A program made the translations under genes and the position numbers. 14,492 bases of DNA from Candidatus Omnitrophota bacterium (lineage in GTDB: Bacteria; Omnitrophota; Gorgyraeia; B26-G9): contig JACQZH010000054.1 of the NCBI GenBank assembly GCA_016213925.1, forward strand, positions 1 through 14,492, read 5' to 3'. Of this stretch, positions 2,730 to 14,492 are shown piece after piece (positions within the stretch are counted from its first letter, which is position 1; the number at the start of each line of letters is the position of its first letter). The notes beneath the pieces are model-generated. The model searched no databases, had not been told where the DNA came from, and saw nothing but the letters and a program-made list of their open reading frames with translations.

Positions 2730-3575
2730 TTAGTCCCTGATTAACTTTTCCGTCGTTCCAATCGGAGTAGGGAAATTAAGCACAACAACATAACTGGAAA
2801 TTATAAAAGTAGCAATCGTAACCAGCTGAATAAGCTGAAAAGCCGGGCTGCTAATGTGCCCAAGTTCCAGAGCCAGAATGGCAATAAGCAGAGAAAATTC
2901 GCTTGATTGCCCCAATCTGAATCCTATTTCTCGGGCAAATAACGGTTTTTCTCCTGTGAAAACAAAAAGCTTTTTGAATACCCAGGGTTTTAATATTATA
3001 CATACCAGCGTTAATATTATTGCCGGAACAATTATCTCTTTCATTATCAAAAAATCCAATTTGGCCCCTAAGGAAAAGAAAAACAATACCAGAAAAAAAT
3101 CTCTCAACGGTTTGAGTTTCTCTGAAATAAAAAATGAAATCCGGTTCTGGGCAATAACCACCCCTGCAAAAAAAGCGCCGGTTTCGTAAAATAGCCCCAT
3201 GCTATTGGAAATCCCGGCAATGCCAAAACACCAAGCCAGCCCCAGGATAAACAATGCTTCCTGCAAACGATCCATATAAGTCATTATCCTGAGCAATACA
3301 AACTGCTCTAGCATTACTAAAACTCCGATAAATAAAATAAGCTTAAGCAGCAGCAAGCCAAAGCTTATCACTGCGCCCTGGGGAGAACCCAGGCAACGGA
3401 TAAAAGCCAGTACTGCTATTGCCATTAGATCCTCTAGGATTAAAACTCCAATACAAATCGCTCCCATTTTCTCCTGGTGCAGCCTGGTTGTCGGCAATAA
3501 TTTAATTGTCAATATTGTGCTCGAAAACATCATAGCCAAGCCAATACTTGAATAACAAGGCAAACGCAAAAGCAA
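2730..3575 (-). CDS. CPA2-family monovalent cation:proton antiporter (KefB-like membrane domain), C-terminal portion. Out of frame with the upstream fragment (frameshift).
   Basis: 'SIGLAMMFSSTILTIKLL...ILEDLMAIAVLAF' matches the KefB/KefC core region (GIGLAMSSTA...LFQDLAVIPALAL, recalled). It is polytopic and hydrophobic throughout. The ORF track starts it at a TTG, and the same frame is open upstream of that to a TAG at about 3599. It overlaps the 3502..3870 ORF by 74 nt in another frame. Confidence 0.75.
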   Translation of the reverse strand: MLLRLPCYSSIGLAMMFSSTILTIKLLPTTRLHQEKMGAICIGVLILEDLMAIAVLAFIRCLGSPQGAVISFGLLLLKLILFIGVLVMLEQFVLLRIMTYMDRLQEALFILGLAWCFGIAGISNSMGLFYETGAFFAGVVIAQNRISFFISEKLKPLRDFFLVLFFFSLGAKLDFLIMKEIIVPAIILTLVCIILKPWVFKKLFVFTGEKPLFAREIGFRLGQSSEFSLLIAILALELGHISSPAFQLIQLVTIATFIISSYVVVLNFPTPIGTTEKLIRD

Positions 3576-3870
3576 TAAAAAATGAAGCTGACGAATTGCC
3601 TAGCGTTACTAAACTGGTTTTTTTAAATAATTCCATCAGTTTTTGCGGATGCAAACACAGCCCGGCAAGAAAAAGAAGCAGGGTTATTCCGATGTGAGAA
3701 ATCGCTTCAATAGATCCGGAATTTTTAATCCAGCCTAACCCCCACGGCCCAGCCAAAATGCCGCAGATAATATAAGCAATTATTATTGGCTGCTTGAATA
3801 ATACCATGACGCATGACAAAACCGCGGAGCCTACCAGGATTATCCCTAATTCGAAAATAAATTTTTCCAT
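3502..3870 (-). CDS. CPA2-family cation:proton antiporter, N-terminal portion (fragment or pseudogene partner of 2730..3575)
   Basis: 'IICGILAGPWGLGWIKNSGSIEAISHIGITLLLFLAGLCLHP' matches the KefB N-terminal signature (LLAGIAIGPWGLGFI...LGVVFLMFIIGLEL, recalled). It ends at a stop inside the next fragment. An A6 homopolymer (plus strand 3577-3582) lies in the region where the frames must switch. It starts 9 nt after the thiM stop, so it is probably co-transcribed with thiM. Confidence 0.7.
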   Translation of the reverse strand: MEKFIFELGIILVGSAVLSCVMVLFKQPIIIAYIICGILAGPWGLGWIKNSGSIEAISHIGITLLLFLAGLCLHPQKLMELFKKTSLVTLGNSSASFFIAFAFALLFKYWLGYDVFEHNIDN

Positions 3871-6269: not shown

Positions 6270-6331
6270 ATTTTTGCTTCGTCCCTCGGTCTTCTATATT
6301 GACTGGGCAATAGCATCTATAGTCTCGATAT
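6270..6331. repeat. Third copy or variant of the mosaic repeat, spanning the giant-gene stop codon
   Basis: It contains cttcgtccctcgg (6277-6289), identical to 14308-14320 but with one TTCGTCC unit instead of two. It also contains ggcaatagcatctatagtctcgat (6306-6330), which resembles ccaatagctatc plus the ctatagtct and tagtcgatgg units of the 10945-11014 tract. The 3' part lies inside the last 12 codons of the giant ORF. Confidence 0.35.
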
Positions 6332-9300
6332 CCGCGTCCTTACGCACAGAAAACTCGTTTTGTTTGAGTATTTCAATCCGCTTTTTCAGGTTAATTCCAA
6401 AATCAAATATCAAAGCATACATCTGCCTGGCAAAACCGCTTTTTGAGTCAAGAGTCAGCGCTTCTAAGGTTTTCCGGTTACCGATAACCGCAGTTTTTTC
6501 CTTAGCCCTGGTAAGGCTTACTAAAAGCAACGCCGGATTAGCAATGATCGTCTCTTCATCAAACAAAAACTGCCGCGTCCTTCCATTGACAAGAGTTCCG
6601 TTACCGCTCTTTTCATTTTTCTTTTTATAAATGTCAGCTTCGTTACTGCGGACCAAAGAAACCAGAGTAATTTTATTTTCTCCTCCCTGGATTTGCTGGG
6701 ATGTAACAACATTTTCTTTAAGAAATTCAATCTCTTCATGAGTAAACTCCGGATCATACTCAATGAAGGATTTGATCAGCTCTATTTGACTGCGGTATGG
6801 CGTAATTATTGTAATATCCTTTACCGTATACGGATTACCATCCTTATTTTTCTTGGTCAAAAATTCCTTTATTTTTCCAAGGATCCAAAGTGCTTCCCCT
6901 GTATTTGAATAACTGCCGGTAACCGGATCCTGTTTTTCAAAAGCCGTATCTTTCCATAAAGAAGTATCGGCTATTTCTAAAGTGTCTTCTTCAAAGGGAT
7001 CATTTTTTTCTTTACTTAAACTTTCAAGCTTAAAATATCCCGCATACCATTTTTGGACCAATTCCACGATTATCCAATGATTACGAAAATTTTTAATTAT
7101 GCTCATTTGAGCATATAATGGGTTATTGATCAGCTGTTCAAAGATGCTCTTTTCGTAACGCGCGATACTGCTTCTCAAATATTTGCCCCCTTCCTGCCTG
7201 AACTTTATCCTTTGGCTGGTGTTAAACTTCGAGATAAGAGAAAAAGGCTTATACTGGATATGGTCTCCGATAAGAAAAAGCGCTTTAGGTTTAAGCAAAT
7301 AAACCGCTGCTATTAATTCCGGGTAATTTATCAGTGCCGCTTCATCGATTACCAAAGTTACGTCTCTTAAATAAACCCGCGACTGCGGGTCATCAAGCAT
7401 GGAGATCAGCCCGTCTAAAGCGCCGCCCATAACTGTTGCCGTTAATATACAGCCGTTTTCATTTGGCTGAATATTAAGCGCGGAAAATCTCCGCTCAAAT
7501 TCTTTTTTCGCTTTTTTCGAATGCCTCGAATAATTTTCCTGGATTTCTTTTTTAAATCTATCCGGCGAGTTCCCGCATCTTAAAACAGGTATGCCCTTAC
7601 TTCCAGTGCGCAAAGTGATCTCGTCGGCAATAACATGCTGGGGAGCGAAAATCAGAACCGGTTTTTTTCTCTCCAGGGCTATTTTTTCAGCAGCGCCGAG
7701 TAAAACTGTTGTCTTTGCCGTGCCTACTCCTCCGTGCAGTAATCCAATACTGTTATTCAGCATAAGATCATTTACTGCTTCCTGACTAAATTCTGCAACA
7801 TTGCTTTTTACCGGTGCATTAAGCCGCAGTATATAATCTAAAACTTCAACTCCTGTTTGTTTGCTTTTTTCAAGTTCCTTCTTTATTTCTTCAAGCGCCT
7901 GCACCTGTATTTTTTCTGACATCGCGTTATACTGCAGGAAAAACCGGGCGGTTCTTAATTTTTCCGGTGTGATCTCAAGAAATCTAATCTTCTGCGTGGC
8001 TGTTCCGGCAGGGACTAAAGTAAGCTTATCACTGCCGATGCCATGAGATATTTTTAACACAAAAGATTCGTCGTTTCCCAAATACATCAAGATCCTGCTG
8101 TAAGCGTCAAACCTTCCGTTTCCATTACTCATTTTAAGAGTAGCCTGAATGCTGATGGGAAATCTTTCAACATTACCGGCTTCTAAAGGCACCAGTTCAT
8201 CCTCTAAACTAATAATTTCCTTAAGCAGCCTAATTTGGCCTTCCAATTCAGCGATCACCTGTCCTGCTTCCAAAAGGTATTTGTTTTTAGCTTCAAAAAC
8301 TTCCCTTTCAGCTTCTGTCTTATCTTCTCCCGCTCCCACCACTGGCTCATTAGCGCCATTTTCTTGTTTCTGGGAATCACCCGGTAAATTATCTTTATTT
8401 TGTTTTGCTTTAGGCAATGCCGGCTCTTCTCTGACGGCTTCACCTAAACTTGTTACCTGCCTGCGTATCTTAGGATACTCCTTTCCCCTAACGCTGAAAA
8501 TTTTTACCTCAGCACGCAAGTCATTAACAGCTTCAAGCAAAGTCCTGTAAGCTTCAGGGTCTATTTCTTGTTTTCTAGACTCCAGCTGCGAGTACACATT
8601 ATCAACCAATAACCTCTCCAATTTCTGTCCTTTTACTTCCTGATCCTTTCTAAGACGAAACTCAACTCTAACTTTTTCAGGATTGTCATCTTGTGTGTTA
8701 TGCACAATGGGCGAAGCAACCGGTATTGTATTTTCTTTTGGCGCGGCAATAACAGATACTTCCGGTTTTTGAAGCACAACAACTGGGATTTCCTGTTTTT
8801 TGGACAGTTCTTTAACTGAAGGTTTAGATTTTTTCTTTTTGTGAGTTACTGCTTTTTTCTCTGTAGGGGGTTTCCTGGATTTTTCAATCTTTAAGATAAA
8901 CTCAGCGAATTTTTTCTTAAAATCATTTATTATCAGATTCCTGCGGACATCTTTATTCTCGGATAAATCGTCAACCCTGTTAAGTGTTTCTTTTAGCAGT
9001 ACTTTCGGGCTCGGCACTAAGTTCGGCTTGAATTTTTTATGTTTAAATAATTTCTGAAGCGCTATTCTTGCTTTAAACTCATTTCTTGCCAGAATTTTAG
9101 CCAGTGTATATATCTCTTCATCGGTTATCTTTTCCCGGAAATCTTGATTCAAACGCTCATTCAAAACCTGAGTCAACACTATAGTCATAACACGCTGCAC
9201 AGCGAGTTTTCTGGCTGTAAGCCAGCCGAATATTCCCATAGCGCCTAAAACAACCAGTGCCGTTGAACTGCTGACAAGTTTTTTATTTTTCTTTGCCCAG

Positions 9301-10829
9301 TTGGAAAAGTTTTTCGACTCAAAAAACTCTTTAATATCATAGAAGAAGGAAAGCCTCTTTCTATCCTCGCGCTGGATATTATACGCCTGCTCTGCGATCC
9401 GGATTATTTGCTCATAATCCAGCGTAAAGAACTGGCCGGCGATCTGAGCCCTAGGTTCAATATATGACAACGGACTTATTCTAATATCAGGAAATTCAGC
9501 AATATGACGTTCAATATAATCGATCATATTATTAAGAATAGTTATTTTTGCTACTGTTTCTTCAGGTAGGATTTCTGTTGATTCAGGGACGCTTATTAAA
9601 TGCAGCATTTCAATGTCAATGAATTCTTCATCGCAGTAAAGCATAGCATCAAGCCTGGCCTCGACTTTCAATCCTGCGCTTTCACGGGCCTGCAGGTCAT
9701 TGACTCTTGAGCCATTCCATAGCGCTACTCCGCTCTTATCCTCGGCAATTAAACCCTGCTGATACCGGTTCCGGGAGCGCATCCAATTAATAATATCCTG
9801 CTTGGTAAAATAGTGGTTTTTTACTCTGCTTAATATTTTTACCTGGCAGAAAGTCAACGGGGTCAAATGCTCTTTATTGCCTAGCAAAAGATACTTATCC
9901 CACGGTATTTCCTGGGCATTCTTGACAAATTCCCAGCTTGTTTGGTTTAATTGATCAATAAAATCCTGAGCATTTTCTTCGACCCTGGACATGCAGACAG
10001 CCACGTTCCCATGGATCACCTTGCCTATAGCCGGATAAATTTCAAGTGACATAACCTCTTTGTCCTCTGTCTCAACCGGTATTATAAGCAGCTCATCCAT
10101 AGTTACAGATCCGTCTTGTTTATCTAAGCTAAAAGGCACGACATCTTTGACCTGGTAAAGTTCAAAATTCCCTACAATCATCGGAGCAAGCTTTCCTTTT
10201 TTCCAAATCGGTATAAATTCAGAATGTAAGATAACCCCGTATCCGGCCAAATATTCGGGCACCAGCTCAAACATCAGTTTTCTCCAAAGAGCTTCCTGAT
10301 CCTGTGCTATTGCCTCAGGCAATAGAGCCTTAAAATCAGTCCCTGATAATTCAAGAATTTTCTTAACTAAATTATTTTTTAATTCAGTAAAAGCTTCTGT
10401 TTTAGGACGGGCAATAGTTTCTTCATCTTTTCTTACTAGTTTTTTATATTTCAAAATAAAATCAGAAATTGACTTAACCACCTGAACCGCCTGTTCATTT
10501 TGAAAAAAACAATCCTCATCAAACGCCTTGTATTTAATACGCAGTTGAGCAATGCTATTACCCTGTTCCTTTGATTCGGACTTTTTCTCGGCTAAAGCGG
10601 GGATAAATAAGGATAAGAACTCTCTGCGGGATCTTGAAGCTAAATCTTCTCTTTTATCCTGGCTAAAAGAAGTAAATACCTGCCTAATATAGGCATTATC
10701 GATTTGCACAGTAGGGGCAAGAAAACTATCCGCGTTAGAGCAGAGTTTTCCGTTTGCCGCCTGAGCAATATCAAGCACCAGGAAAGCCTGTATCAATAGT
10801 ATTGAAATTAGTTTTAATAATCTATTCAT
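6294..10829 (-). CDS. Giant multidomain protein (1511 aa). Domain order: signal peptide, unknown N-terminal domain of about 490 aa, one TM helix, Lys-rich and coiled-coil linker, then a C-terminal Upf1/DNA2-like superfamily-1 helicase.
   Basis: A continuous 4.5-kb ORF in AT-rich DNA. Residues 1-27 (MNRLLKLISILLIQAFLVLDIAQA|ANG) are signal-peptide-like with an AxA site. The TM helix is about residues 519-541 (ALVVLGAMGIFGWLTA). A K-rich tract runs over residues 655-690. SF1 helicase motifs are present: I LHGGVGTAKTT (1031-1041); II VIDEAA (1160-1165); III FLIGDHIQYKPF (about 1185-1196); V ITPYRSQ (1342-1348); VI LLLVSLTRAKEKTAVIGN (1434-1451). Motif spacing and sequence match the Upf1-like AAA_11/AAA_12 arrangement (recalled consensus GPPGTGKT, DEAxQ, GDxxQLPP, TxxxYQG, VALTRAR). 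No SD precedes the ATG. Confidence 0.8.
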   Translation of the reverse strand: MNRLLKLISILLIQAFLVLDIAQAANGKLCSNADSFLAPTVQIDNAYIRQVFTSFSQDKREDLASRSRREFLSLFIPALAEKKSESKEQGNSIAQLRIKYKAFDEDCFFQNEQAVQVVKSISDFILKYKKLVRKDEETIARPKTEAFTELKNNLVKKILELSGTDFKALLPEAIAQDQEALWRKLMFELVPEYLAGYGVILHSEFIPIWKKGKLAPMIVGNFELYQVKDVVPFSLDKQDGSVTMDELLIIPVETEDKEVMSLEIYPAIGKVIHGNVAVCMSRVEENAQDFIDQLNQTSWEFVKNAQEIPWDKYLLLGNKEHLTPLTFCQVKILSRVKNHYFTKQDIINWMRSRNRYQQGLIAEDKSGVALWNGSRVNDLQARESAGLKVEARLDAMLYCDEEFIDIEMLHLISVPESTEILPEETVAKITILNNMIDYIERHIAEFPDIRISPLSYIEPRAQIAGQFFTLDYEQIIRIAEQAYNIQREDRKRLSFFYDIKEFFESKNFSNWAKKNKKLVSSSTALVVLGAMGIFGWLTARKLAVQRVMTIVLTQVLNERLNQDFREKITDEEIYTLAKILARNEFKARIALQKLFKHKKFKPNLVPSPKVLLKETLNRVDDLSENKDVRRNLIINDFKKKFAEFILKIEKSRKPPTEKKAVTHKKKKSKPSVKELSKKQEIPVVVLQKPEVSVIAAPKENTIPVASPIVHNTQDDNPEKVRVEFRLRKDQEVKGQKLERLLVDNVYSQLESRKQEIDPEAYRTLLEAVNDLRAEVKIFSVRGKEYPKIRRQVTSLGEAVREEPALPKAKQNKDNLPGDSQKQENGANEPVVGAGEDKTEAEREVFEAKNKYLLEAGQVIAELEGQIRLLKEIISLEDELVPLEAGNVERFPISIQATLKMSNGNGRFDAYSRILMYLGNDESFVLKISHGIGSDKLTLVPAGTATQKIRFLEITPEKLRTARFFLQYNAMSEKIQVQALEEIKKELEKSKQTGVEVLDYILRLNAPVKSNVAEFSQEAVNDLMLNNSIGLLHGGVGTAKTTVLLGAAEKIALERKKPVLIFAPQHVIADEITLRTGSKGIPVLRCGNSPDRFKKEIQENYSRHSKKAKKEFERRFSALNIQPNENGCILTATVMGGALDGLISMLDDPQSRVYLRDVTLVIDEAALINYPELIAAVYLLKPKALFLIGDHIQYKPFSLISKFNTSQRIKFRQEGGKYLRSSIARYEKSIFEQLINNPLYAQMSIIKNFRNHWIIVELVQKWYAGYFKLESLSKEKNDPFEEDTLEIADTSLWKDTAFEKQDPVTGSYSNTGEALWILGKIKEFLTKKNKDGNPYTVKDITIITPYRSQIELIKSFIEYDPEFTHEEIEFLKENVVTSQQIQGGENKITLVSLVRSNEADIYKKKNEKSGNGTLVNGRTRQFLFDEETIIANPALLLVSLTRAKEKTAVIGNRKTLEALTLDSKSGFARQMYALIFDFGINLKKRIEILKQNEFSVRKDADIETIDAIAQSI

Positions 10830-10868
10830 AACAGAGGGTAAAGTATACCTGATTTTAATATTATATGC

Positions 10869-10904
10869 AAAAAAAGAGGAGTCTCCTCAGAAACCCCACT
10901 CCTC
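10869..10904 (-). terminator. Rho-independent terminator (minus strand) ending the upstream membrane-protein/esterase operon, about 40 nt before the giant-gene start
   Basis: Minus-strand read: GAGGAGT-ggggtttct-GAGGAG-a-CTCCTC-TTTTTTT. Two alternative stems (7 bp with a 15-nt loop, or an inner 4-6 bp stem) are followed by T7. It lies between the 7-bp-periodic repeat tract and the candidate giant-gene promoter. Confidence 0.5.
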
Positions 10905-10944
10905 AAAATTATGAGAATAATTATATAAAAGAATAGGTTGCAGT

Positions 10945-11014
10945 TCTATAGTCTATAGATTATGGCCGATGGATAATAGTCGATGGCCAATAGCTATCAG
11001 CTATTAGCTGATTT
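10945..11014. repeat. Degenerate heptamer tandem tract (10 units, consensus about nYnATrG) containing a perfect palindrome ATCAGCTA-T-TAGCTGAT
   Basis: Phased 7-mers read directly: tctatag|tctatag|attatgg|ccgatgg|ataatag|tcgatgg|ccaatag|ctatcag|ctattag|ctgattt. The G at position 7 is present in 9/10 units, the T at position 5 in 9/10, the A at position 4 in 8/10. It contains the palindromes CTATAG, ATAGCTAT and the 17-bp ATCAGCTATTAGCTGAT (10996-11012). It is intergenic between the P1 stop (11081) and the giant-gene start (10829). Confidence 0.55.
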
Positions 11015-11080
11015 ATGTCTTAAGTCTTATTCTAATATCTGATTGTCTAACTACGCCCCTACGCCTAGAGCCCCTGAATG

Positions 11081-11872
11081 TTACACTGATATTTGTTTTT
11101 TGGAAACAATCCGGTTTAAAAGAAGTCCCAGCGCAGCAAGCGTCGTAATAATAACATGCGGCCTAACTGCCTTTCCACTGACAAACAAGGGATGTATATT
11201 GTGGCCCGTTCCAGGTAAAAAGAAAAATAAAACGAGAAAAAACAAAACCATGAAACACGCCAGCACATCAAGAAACTTATTAGGCTTAAAAGGCGCAGGC
11301 TCAACTTTATTTTTTATATTTGACGTAATAATACTACGAAAAAAGCGAGCAAAAATTAACGTAAGAGTCAACATAACAAAAAACTGCCAAGCAGTAACCG
11401 GCGGCCTAGCAAGAAGCCTAAAACTGGTGCTAATTAAAACATAGGCTGTAAAAAACCAAAATATGCCCGGCTTAGATAATAGCGGTTTAGACCGGTCAAC
11501 ATCCGGATTAAGCCGATGGCCTATATATAAAGCAAAGACCGTTTGCAGCGTTGTCCACCAAACCAGATTATTTATGAATAAGATCCTAAAGCTTATCCCA
11601 ACGATAACAGGCGGAATAGGATAATAAACGCCTGCAACACTTATCAATTGCCAAAGCAGGCCGAAAAATTGAGCCACAATCCAAACCTGATAATCTTTAA
11701 GTTTAAACCGTCCTATAAAGTCTTCGATAAGGACAAGATAAGTAAAATAATTTAAGAAAACAAGCAAAGATATAAAAGGGAATCTCAAGAAATGATTACA
11801 TCCTCTTAGCGCATACTCCGCCAGAAAAGCAAAACATGAAGCGATAAAAATCACTCTCCAACGCTTGTCCAT
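11081..11872 (-). CDS. Polytopic membrane protein, paralog of the adjacent upstream gene. Family uncertain; weak CPBP/Abi-like 'EYxxRG' motif.
   Basis: Hydrophobic multi-TM protein, paralogous to 11887..12564 (LVLIEDFIGRFKLKDYQ vs SIVEDLIRRFKITNLQ; LFINNLVWWTTLQTV vs LFINVVWWGSLQSV; C-termini KKQISV vs KKQISI). The track ORF extends to 11956 but would then overlap the upstream paralog by 70 nt. The internal ATG at 11872 (MDKRWRVIF...) has an SD-like AAGGGGAAG upstream and lies 14 nt after the upstream gene's stop, so it is the more likely start. Confidence 0.65.
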   Translation of the reverse strand: MDKRWRVIFIASCFAFLAEYALRGCNHFLRFPFISLLVFLNYFTYLVLIEDFIGRFKLKDYQVWIVAQFFGLLWQLISVAGVYYPIPPVIVGISFRILFINNLVWWTTLQTVFALYIGHRLNPDVDRSKPLLSKPGIFWFFTAYVLISTSFRLLARPPVTAWQFFVMLTLTLIFARFFRSIITSNIKNKVEPAPFKPNKFLDVLACFMVLFFLVLFFFLPGTGHNIHPLFVSGKAVRPHVIITTLAALGLLLNRIVSKKQISV

Positions 11873-11886
11873 TTTCTTCCCCTTTT

Positions 11887-12564
11887 TCAAATCGAAATTT
11901 GTTTTTTGTTTTTCAAATAATATAAAAGCATGCCCATGAAAACAACCAGCGTCCAAGCGGCTGAAAGCTTAATTGCCAAAGGACTTCCCAATGAGCCGGA
12001 CACAAGAACTTGCCTTACGGCGACAAAAGTTCCCAAGAACATGAATACACATACACTAAAAAATGAAAGGCAGTCCAAAAGAAAAGATTGCTTAAAATCC
12101 CAGGGTTCTCTCTTATTTTTATTTATGGAATATATTAAATAAATCAGGGCGACTAAAAAAATAATAACGGACATAAAATAGCCATGCGCTGTGCCCTTGA
12201 GCGGAATCTTGCTTTTAAACAACATAAACACCGCAAGCCATACGATATAACCTACGCTTAATATCCATCCTAAAGGCCCCATCGGCTTTTCCGACCAATC
12301 GCGCTTACAGAAGCGATTAGCAAAATAAAAAGTCAATACGCTCTGAAGAGAACCCCACCAGACCACATTTATAAAAAGCATAGAGCCAATATTTATACCA
12401 AAACAAAAAGCCACGAGTATTAACTGCAGATTAGTAATCTTAAACCTTCTGATTAAATCCTCGACAATCGAACAATAGAAAAAATATAAGAAGAAATTAA
12501 AGAAGAAAAATATGCCATGCAAAGTCATGCCCTTTAACCCGCGCATAGAATACTCAAAGAGCAT
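11887..12564 (-). CDS. Polytopic membrane protein, tandem paralog of 11081..11872; family uncertain
   Basis: 225-aa hydrophobic ORF with 5-6 predicted TM segments. It shares conserved blocks with the downstream paralog. No SD before the annotated ATG. A later in-frame Met (MRGLKGMTLHG or MTLHG) cannot be excluded as the start. Confidence 0.65.
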   Translation of the reverse strand: MLFEYSMRGLKGMTLHGIFFFFNFFLYFFYCSIVEDLIRRFKITNLQLILVAFCFGINIGSMLFINVVWWGSLQSVLTFYFANRFCKRDWSEKPMGPLGWILSVGYIVWLAVFMLFKSKIPLKGTAHGYFMSVIIFLVALIYLIYSINKNKREPWDFKQSFLLDCLSFFSVCVFMFLGTFVAVRQVLVSGSLGSPLAIKLSAAWTLVVFMGMLLYYLKNKKQISI

Positions 12565-12724
12565 ATTAAAAAATACCGCCGCTAGAATAATCTTTGTTTT
12601 TCATACCCTTGCTATCTTTTAAGTTAGGATACAACTAACTATAATTTAATTCGATGGCTCTGATTTTTTACACAAAAACCTAATTCCTACGGCATCAAAA
12701 GCAGAACCCTGGCACTTCGCTTTC

Positions 12725-14252: not shown

Positions 14253-14262
14253 ATTAATTACC

Positions 14263-14346
14263 TAGTATAGTCGATGGATTATCAGCCATCAGCTAATTTT
14301 CGTCCTTCGTCCCTCGGGTTACTATGAACTCATGAACTATGAGCTC
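14263..14346. repeat. Heptamer-periodic intergenic repeat related to the 10945-11014 tract. Shares ATAGTCGATGG and ATCAGCTA, and carries an exact tandem TTCGTCC duplication.
   Basis: agtatag|tcgatgg|attatca|gccatca|gctaatt|ttcgtcc|ttcgtcc|ctcgggt, then ATGAACTcATGAACT. The 11-mer atagtcgatgg plus ATCAGCTA 9-10 nt later matches 10975-11003. cttcgtccctcgg matches 6277-6289. It starts 10 nt upstream of the 13818..14252 start codon. Confidence 0.45.
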
Positions 14347-14492
14347 GCTCTACATTTGCTTCAAACACGCCTTTGACAAGCTCACTAGAGAAATACTGCA
14401 AATCAACTTTATACTTTTCTGCTTTCATAAAATAAATATTTCTTTGTCTTCTAATATCTTTACATTTTTAAACAAGCCGGGATATTTTGGGG

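Follow-up and report, generated by a model that had tools for sequence, protein, structure and literature searches.

A degenerate, partly inverted heptanucleotide-repeat tract and two shorter relatives in intergenic spacers of a Candidatus Omnitrophota contig

Genes and predicted signals around the tract

This report concerns a 70-bp tract of phased 7-bp units in a metagenome-derived contig of a Candidatus Omnitrophota bacterium (assembly GCA_016213925.1, contig JACQZH010000054.1), the window being the complete contig of 14,492 nt. The tract occupies positions 10945-11014, within a spacer of 251 bp between two minus-strand genes. Every sizeable gene of the contig is on that strand, and the GC content is about 38%. 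Read along the minus strand, the order is a metallo-beta-lactamase (MBL)/RMMBL hydrolase gene, a second copy of the repeat, a DUF3592 gene, an esterase gene, a third copy, two paralogous membrane-protein genes, the main tract (copy 1), a predicted terminator and a giant gene. The tract and the features that border it are as follows.

11081..11872, minus strand: upstream gene, for a 263-aa uncharacterised membrane protein; its stop codon (11083-11081) lies 66 nt before the tract
10945-11014: heptamer tract of ten units, TCTATAG TCTATAG ATTATGG CCGATGG ATAATAG TCGATGG CCAATAG CTATCAG CTATTAG CTGATTT
10868..10897, minus strand: terminator-like hairpin GGGGTTTCTGAGGAGACTCC (or GAGGAGT...ACTCCTC) with T7, a prediction, 47 nt downstream of the tract
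10842..10871, minus strand: sigma-70-like promoter TTGCAT-17-TATACT of the giant gene, a prediction, ending 12 nt before the ATG, with no Shine-Dalgarno sequence
6294..10829, minus strand: downstream gene, for a 1511-aa protein with the C-terminal superfamily 1 (SF1) helicase domains AAA_11/AAA_12 and a signal-peptide-like N-terminus

An earlier reading of the same DNA (the first-pass annotation) placed the tract upstream of a giant helicase gene. The distance to the ATG of that gene (10829) is indeed 115 nt, but the predicted terminator and promoter lie in between, and the hairpin and T-run of the former overlap the latter (10871-10842). The helicase label suits the C-terminal third of the 1511-aa protein and not the rest of it. 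The combination is odd for a helicase: a hydrophobic segment within the protein, a middle rich in lysine, and SF1 helicase domains confined to the last ~500 residues.

Sequence and phase of the tract

The ten in-phase heptamers have exactly the sequence and coordinates first given for them, and the column counts were confirmed by recount, with A at position 4 in 8/10 units, T at position 5 in 9/10 and G at position 7 in 9/10; position 2 is a pyrimidine throughout. All ten are in phase, but they are not ten direct units. The eighth and ninth match the consensus better as reverse complements, so the array is made up of about seven direct and two or three inverted units. Within the seven direct units there is no variation in columns 4, 5 and 7, and column 2 holds only Y and column 6 only R; on the gene-sense (minus) strand these units read CYATnRn. 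The direct-then-inverted layout gives rise to the palindromes ATAGCTAT and ATCAGCTA-T-TAGCTGAT, which are present as previously named, together with CTATAG twice. The parts of the tract can be listed as:

10945..10993, plus strand: direct part, seven contiguous nYnATrG heptamers (TCTATAG x2, ATTATGG, CCGATGG, ATAATAG, TCGATGG, CCAATAG)
10994..11014, plus strand: inverted-type part, CTATCAG CTATTAG CTGATTT, in phase (reverse complements CTGATAG, CTAATAG, AAATCAG)
10930..10943, plus strand: possible eroded left extension, AGAATAG GTTGCAG, weaker, read by eye and one base out of phase
11015..11028, plus strand: flanking heptamer pair ATGTCTT AAGTCTT, with the counterpart TCGTCCT TCGTCCC beside the second copy
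10946-51 and 10953-58: the two copies of the palindrome CTATAG
10990-97: palindrome ATAGCTAT
10996-11012: perfect 8+1+8 palindrome ATCAGCTA-T-TAGCTGAT

The phasing is beyond chance by several measures, as had been proposed. Apart from period 7 (z = 8.5) and its harmonic 14 (z = 6.4), no period from 3 to 15 is out of the ordinary, and the autocorrelation at lags 7, 14, 21 and 28 (0.60, 0.57, 0.53 and 0.52) compares with ~0.2 at other lags. The pattern YNATRGN x5 has its sole contig match in the tract and none in 200 dinucleotide shuffles. A phased information score, taken over 70-bp windows, reaches 68-72 in the tract, the highest value in the contig, whose windows as a whole give 18.4 +/- 6.3. 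The best 70-bp window in ~93 kb of contigs bearing homologues of the neighbouring membrane-protein gene scored 54.

The repetition is also imperfect. Tandem Repeats Finder (TRF), the check that had been suggested for the window, detects the repeat with period 14 only (72-84%) and does not call period 7 for the tract. The only adjacent identical units are the first and second, which leaves 14 bp of perfect repeat. Traces of duplication are seen in the doubled TCTATAG, in ATTATGGCCGATGG compared with ATAATAGTCGATGG (11/14 identity) and in CTATCAG and CTATTAG, which are one base apart.

Folded as a single DNA strand, the tract gives three small hairpins (z = -3.5 vs dinucleotide shuffles), and stop codons occur across it in all six frames. 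The search for a small open reading frame (ORF) or leader peptide in the tract found no ORF of >=30 aa and no ribosome-binding site. There was no match in a search for tRNA and tmRNA. Across the whole window nothing reached the gathering score of an Rfam family, the best permissive match having E = 0.11 and 23.5 bits where 228.9 are required, and RNA folds of 103-215 nt (z from -1.0 to -1.3) were no better than those of shuffles.

Two related copies in the next two upstream spacers

Two shorter related copies are present in the next two upstream spacers, and are new here; the first-pass annotation had missed both. Their positions, with those of two short end boxes, are:

14262..14311, minus strand: second, shorter copy, GGACGAA GGACGAA AATTAG CTGATGG CTGATAA T CCATCGA CTATACT, ending 11 nt before the ATG (14252) of the DUF3592 gene
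12651..12666, minus strand: third, minimal copy, AAATCAG-AG-CCATCGA, in the spacer that separates the esterase gene from that for the 225-aa membrane protein
11014..11008, minus strand: end box A of the main tract, AAATCAG
10980..10986, minus strand: end box B, CCATCGA (TCGATGG on the plus strand), common to all three copies

The second copy matches the tract in the same orientation (blastn, 37/51 identity, E = 0.002 within the window) and aligns unit by unit with its right-hand part, including the flanking pair nnGTCyT nnGTCyy. The composite pattern AAATYAG-N(0-30)-CCATCGA has exactly three matches in the contig (11014-10980, 12666-12651 and 14299-14271), all of them in spacers and on the minus strand, against a chance expectation of 0.02. 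The gap from box to box is 21 nt (three heptamers) in the main tract, 15 nt (two) in the second copy and 2 nt (none) in the third; clear units following box B number six, one and none, respectively.

The 7-bp phase is kept in the second copy, while the 8+1+8 palindrome is lost, 3/8 of its pairs being broken without compensation. A conserved hairpin was rejected for this reason. The forward units of this copy lie 25-39 nt before the DUF3592 ATG, which has a weak Shine-Dalgarno sequence. The Logan contig L252 (SRR12113406), found through the DUF3592 protein, is 100% identical to the present contig in their overlap, second copy included, and extends it by 1.2 kb. Past position 14492 this extension (L252 1-1440) carries a 421-aa metallo-beta-lactamase/RMMBL (RNase J/CPSF-like) gene and a 32-aa ORF directly upstream of the second copy. 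Tandem pairs border both of the longer copies, GGACGAA x2 (14311..14298, minus strand) in one case and AAGACnT x2 (11028..11015) in the other. A period-8 repeat, ATGAACTC x3, lies beyond the second copy at 14324-14346.

The unit family in other genomes and metagenomes

A scan for YNATRGN x5 gave at least 120 matches in a species-genome collection and at least 120 in a viral collection. Among the matches listed, 230/258 arrays have three or fewer distinct units, that is, they are ordinary near-perfect 7-bp repeats, many of them from Cyanobacteria, Chloroflexota and Bacteroidota. Since the broad five-unit matches are of this ordinary kind, the scan is uninformative on whether this particular unit family is favoured. 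Four of the tract's units (CCGATGG, TCGATGG, CCAATAG and ATAATAG) occur, among the matches listed, as pure or near-perfect arrays in other genomes. At the listed loci TRF gave 522 rows of period 7 compared with 94 of period 6 and 96 of period 8, and 276/522 lay outside the selected arrays. The other period-7 arrays fitted the unit family in 20% of cases against 4.8% expected, a figure biased by how the loci were selected. In a rough ORF-based survey, the arrays were placed between co-directional ORFs in 81 cases, convergent ORFs in 26 and divergent ORFs in 10, with no strand preference (44 vs 37).

The 20-mer TATCAGCYATYAGCTRATTT of the tract was found in 43 metagenome contigs, and 17 of 38 distinct matches extend into longer in-phase arrays, some of them arranged as inverted blocks. 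The strict composite pattern ATAGTCGATGG...ATYAGCTRATTT had no match in the Joint Genome Institute (JGI) metagenomes. One of the matches to the 20-mer, Candidatus Campbellbacteria GW2011_OD1_34_28 (L277), contains four short degenerate CYnATAG arrays in 9 kb, all in spacers. All 12 of their 12 units have C-Y at positions 1-2 and ATAG at positions 4-7, with position 3 free, and the search had imposed nothing on positions 1-3. In a sister genome, 97-99.6% identical, one array pair is unchanged (100% conserved). At another site (L277 7727-8180) a gene for a 112-aa four-helix-bundle protein is flanked by inverted CYnATAG arrays, and the sister (L296 2919-3000) has in its place a 64-bp spacer with a different short array. 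By eye, the 112-aa protein resembles 23S rRNA intervening-sequence proteins. Another degenerate array, CAAATGA CAAATAA CCAATGA CAAATTC CAAATTG, was noticed in a spacer on another, unrelated contig from a metagenome, one with a homologue of the membrane protein (L248-L251, ~786-830).

Comparison with known repeat and binding systems

Heptamer repeats are a known and poorly understood kind of element, of which the tract is a further example. Heptanucleotides have been reported to outnumber all other long simple repeats in most prokaryotic genomes and to be enriched in spacers, with polymerase slippage as the proposed cause (Mrazek et al. 2007, summarised in PMC4679880 and PMC4692102). The tract resembles the long simple sequence repeats and short tandemly repeated repetitive sequences (LSSR/STRR; cyanobacterial STRR, and GGGAATC in Xanthomonas and Nostoc) in consisting of contiguous, spacerless 7-bp units in an intergenic spacer, in having similar units at several loci (here the copies in the next two spacers) and in showing both direct and inverted layouts. 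Slippage is the presumed origin of those repeats too (PMC4679880, PMC4692102). The tract differs from them in that its units are far from near-identical, with 6 distinct among 7 and no period 7 called by TRF, in that its conservation is concentrated in four columns and in that its copies share end boxes which are not themselves repeats.

A second comparison is with the TAACTGA repeats of marine Beggiatoaceae, some Cyanobacteria and Bacteroidetes. In one Beggiatoa genome 169 sets of these were reported, mostly just upstream of start codons that for the most part have no ribosome-binding site, and a post-transcriptional role was proposed (MacGregor 2015; PMC4679880). The register CTGATAA of this heptamer is one base away from CTGATAG in the tract and CTGATGG in the second copy, and CTGATAA itself occurs in the second copy. 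Further likenesses are the short sets (2-6 units), sometimes split by related heptamers, the location in spacers and the stop codons within the unit. In placement the likeness is partial: one copy, the second, is found shortly before a start codon whose ribosome-binding site is poor. In contrast to those repeats, the contig has no tandem TAACTGA, the single isolated one (8813) being in coding sequence; the main tract follows a gene and precedes a predicted terminator, its distance from the ATG being 115 nt, and most of its units face the opposite way with respect to the genes; and the units are heterogeneous instead of repeating one favoured heptamer. Modest reporter effects of heptamer repeats in Nostoc have been described in a preprint, in which deletions altered the output in Nostoc and in E. 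coli (10.1101/2022.06.06.494920).

The first-pass annotation set the 7-bp periodicity, which does not match the helical repeat, apart from classic iterons and OmpR-type direct repeats. The wider argument that no binding array with such a phase is known is mistaken, since two proteins are proven to read one. On pSM19035 omega/ParB recognises series of 7-10 contiguous WATCACW heptads, which may face either way (PMC9499535), and HutP binds XAG triplets with 4-nt spacers, in effect a 7-nt phase, with the A and G essential (PMC2425495). The tract resembles omega sites in having at least four contiguous unspaced 7-bp units, seven direct and two or three inverted. Unlike them it contains no ATCAC, and it does not lie over the promoter, whereas omega sites overlap promoters on the plasmid that codes for their protein; no ribbon-helix-helix protein or partition ATPase was seen among 13 proteins scanned, and no plasmid context. 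With HutP and TRAP sites it shares, in part, a short core at a fixed spacing next to a terminator. Its plus-strand triplets (UAG x5, CAG x1 and UGG x3) are in exact 7-nt phase, although the three UGG lack the A. It differs from the HutP and TRAP sites in the antisense orientation of its matching strand relative to the genes, in having no 3+3 arrangement of sites and in the lack of a HutP or TRAP gene in the contig. Repetitive extragenic palindromic elements and bacterial interspersed mosaic elements (REP/BIME) are likewise dispersed in spacers, often at operon 3' ends, and capable of forming hairpins in mRNA. They are, however, imperfect palindromes of ~35 bp, whereas the present copies are built of phased 7-bp units and do not keep their palindromes from one copy to the next.

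Interpretation

The reading preferred here, which we consider slightly more likely than not, is that the tract is a degenerate, partly inverted copy of a small family of dispersed intergenic heptanucleotide repeats, born of slippage or duplication, transcribed with the operon and of little or no sequence-specific function. Slipped-strand mispairing or unequal exchange, in steps of 7 and 14 bp, would have built the array and altered its length, and the array would then have diverged. Such an origin, part of an earlier suggestion that the tract is a slipped-strand module, is supported by the identical neighbouring units, the 11/14 duplicate, the TRF period of 14 and the perfect arrays elsewhere. 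With a predicted terminator and promoter between it and the giant gene, the tract is most simply part of the 3' untranslated end of the upstream operon and not of the promoter of that gene. Transcription of the minus strand would pass through it within the 3' untranslated end of a DUF3592-esterase-membrane-protein operon, ahead of the operon terminator. In the operon RNA the tract would place a stop codon in each of the three frames and form three small hairpins. Any effect would at most be generic, on how stable or how well insulated the mRNA 3' end is.

Several observations weigh against this reading. Transcription, the terminator and the promoter in this spacer are predictions only, drawn from consensus matches. 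The seven direct units comprise six distinct ones, whereas none of 89 pattern-matching arrays of at least seven units exceeds five. The variation is also uneven, with A4, T5 and G7 invariant, transitions only at Y2 and R6, and positions 1 and 3 free. Tested against equal decay, this column-specific conservation has P ~0.02, or ~0.003 once the second copy contributes its two direct units, values for which the units are non-independent and the register was picked after the fact. A free position 3 between a fixed C-Y and ATAG also recurs, unforced by the search, in the 12 Campbellbacteria units, and the hairpin potential of the tract is mildly above that of column-preserving shuffles (p ~0.01-0.03). 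Finally, the three copies all face one way and keep their end boxes, which suggests either a dispersed element whose ends are defined or a constraint common to the three; neutral slippage acting separately at each site would not be expected to leave shared boxes and one orientation. The heterogeneity, the column bias and the shared boxes and orientation keep alive the reading of the tract as a binding array, on DNA or RNA. The first-pass annotation had raised the protein-binding idea, which agrees with three invariant columns beside others that vary freely, though none of the 13 proteins scanned is a candidate binder.

On the RNA side, one unlikely reading has an oligomeric RNA-binding protein recognise CYAU at 7-nt intervals along the operon mRNA. 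Such a protein would modulate the terminator 47 nt downstream, and so read-through into the giant gene, or the translation or stability of neighbouring cistrons. The three copies are all gene-oriented and in spacers predicted to be transcribed, one at the 5' end, one intercistronic and one at the 3' end before the terminator, and only 11 nt separate the end of the second copy from a start codon whose Shine-Dalgarno sequence is weak, a placement like that of the Beggiatoa TAACTGA repeats (PMC4679880). Its CTGATAA unit is a rotated TAACTGA. HutP offers a precedent for reading XAG with 4-nt spacers, in 7-nt phase beside a terminator (PMC2425495), and the reporter output altered by deletion of heptamer repeats in Nostoc and E. 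coli (10.1101/2022.06.06.494920) is in keeping with some such role. The XAG phase of the tract is, however, on the plus strand, antisense to every neighbouring gene, with UGG for 3/9 triplets, while the sense strand offers only CYAU, for which there is no known binder. No antiterminator alternative is predicted and the folds are no better than those of shuffles; a domain scan of the contig found no HutP, TRAP or CsrA-type gene; and the function of the TAACTGA repeats is itself a hypothesis.

Somewhat less likely is an operator- or centromere-like array on DNA, to which a small multimeric protein would bind cooperatively, one dimer per heptamer, on direct and inverted heptads, as omega/ParB does on pSM19035. 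Three arrays of 1-10 units would then co-regulate the operon, the giant gene or both. The geometry is that of omega sites, contiguous 7-bp units in both orientations (7-10 heptads, of which at least four contiguous are needed; PMC9499535), and the ATRG core is conserved by column. Arrays differing in unit number stand upstream of three gene groups, and that of the second copy overlaps a promoter-like CTGATG-17-TATACT which ends 11 nt before the DUF3592 start codon. The units nevertheless do not fit WATCACW and their degeneracy is very high for a specific operator; a ribbon-helix-helix or other DNA-binding domain was found in 0/13 proteins scanned; and the genes are those of a chromosome and not of a plasmid. 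From the main tract, moreover, it is ~75 nt downstream to the -35 box of the giant gene, with the terminator between, and heptads are essentially missing from the third copy.

A broader version of these two views, which we judge quite unlikely, is that the CYnATrG core with its free third position could be a cross-phylum cis-element read by an oligomeric protein on DNA or on operon mRNA. It could span Omnitrophota and the Campbellbacteria of the Candidate Phyla Radiation (CPR), together with the CTGATAA of the TAACTGA repeats in Beggiatoa, Cyanobacteria and Bacteroidetes. If it were so, the number and orientation of heptads in each spacer would set termination, read-through, translation or cassette exchange, and at this locus the array would control terminator read-through into the giant gene.

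It is very unlikely that the heptamer arrays are ends of, or targets for, inserted or exchanged gene cassettes, whether as att-like sites or as rearrangement hot spots. The second and first copies do bracket a four-gene block in direct orientation, the third splitting it into two gene pairs, and in Campbellbacteria the 112-aa gene flanked by inverted arrays is replaced in the sister by a 64-bp spacer with a different array, a comparison from which the tract may be a rearrangement hot spot. That spacer is nonetheless replaced whole and not cleanly interrupted, and another array pair is 100% conserved. Integron attC sites have the core sites RYYYAAC ... GTTRRRY. AAATYAG and CCATCGA, unlike such core sites, are not mutually complementary; there is no target-site duplication, and neither an integrase, a transposase nor a tRNA was found in the contig or its 1.2-kb extension. 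The recombination or att site put forward in the first-pass annotation is not supported, no integrase, tRNA or complementary attC-type core sites having been found.

About as unlikely is a promoter within the tract (CTGATA-16-TATTAT, 11000..10973, minus strand) for a short non-coding RNA of ~100 nt ending at the 10868 terminator. Although the terminator follows at a fitting distance and the second copy has the homologous CTGATG-17-TATACT, the promoter-like pair scores at the minimum of the scan (9/12), at which 5 were found against 2.6 expected from shuffles, a comparable frequency, and the arrangement is missing from the third copy; the putative RNA folds no better than shuffles (z = -1.0) and belongs to no Rfam family, its best E of 0.11 being far below the gathering score. 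A phase-variation switch, in which gain or loss of 7-bp units toggles expression of the giant gene, is suggested by the tandem 7-bp layout upstream of a large, probably surface-exposed or secreted protein, but is most improbable, because the perfect repeat is just 14 bp (two identical units) where slippage needs long near-perfect tracts, and because the tract is insulated from the promoter, lying outside any ORF and outside the -35/-10 spacer with the terminator before the promoter, so that a 7-bp change has no obvious consequence; the sole other assembly covering part of the contig is, besides, identical across the second copy.

Heptamer repeats are the commonest long simple repeats in prokaryotes, yet studies have given only hints of a regulatory effect, and they have not been described before in Omnitrophota. 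The present locus is a strongly eroded array that still holds a four-base core in strict phase, with two co-oriented relatives. Should the core be conserved by selection, it points to a binding factor and provides a testable handle on the heptamer puzzle; should it not be, the tract is ordinary spacer debris with no bearing on the adjacent giant gene.

Neighbouring genes and minor observations

The 1511-aa protein is an orphan, matching only itself among 5.8 billion proteins, and its N-terminal 486 aa had no relative in 185,579 species genomes. Exact-protein look-ups of the giant ORF and of a long 291-aa ORF returned nothing. The DUF3592 protein likewise had only a self-match among the 5.8 billion proteins, in which the 263-aa membrane protein had ~25 homologues at 48-68% identity. 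The loci of these homologues, in four contig sets, have unrelated gene contexts and little or no downstream spacer, and no heptamer tract was found in them. The 225-aa and 263-aa membrane proteins (11081-12564, minus strand) are tandem paralogues which share a C-terminal KKQIS[IV] and have no Pfam match and no conserved neighbourhood. As a paralogue of the adjacent membrane protein, the 225-aa ORF was ruled out as a regulator.

In both the giant gene and the DUF3592 gene a TATACT box ends 11-12 nt ahead of the ATG, and neither gene has a good Shine-Dalgarno sequence (10830-10871 and 14253-14270, minus strand). Most other genes of the contig have GGAG-type sites, and these two may have very short leaders. 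A perfect TATAAT is also present at 10865-10860 on the minus strand. Reading by eye gave no match to a sigma-54 promoter, a Fur box or a dif site, and a replication origin was rejected, the GC skew being monotonic.

Elsewhere in the window, a Na+/H+ exchanger gene (2730-3870, minus strand) is split into overlapping ORFs of 122 aa (Pfam profile positions 10-104) and 281 aa (109-367), which suggests a frameshift, a pseudogene or an assembly error. An AT-rich tandem repeat (944-994; period 6, AATATA, and period 25) occupies the spacer upstream of the leftmost gene.

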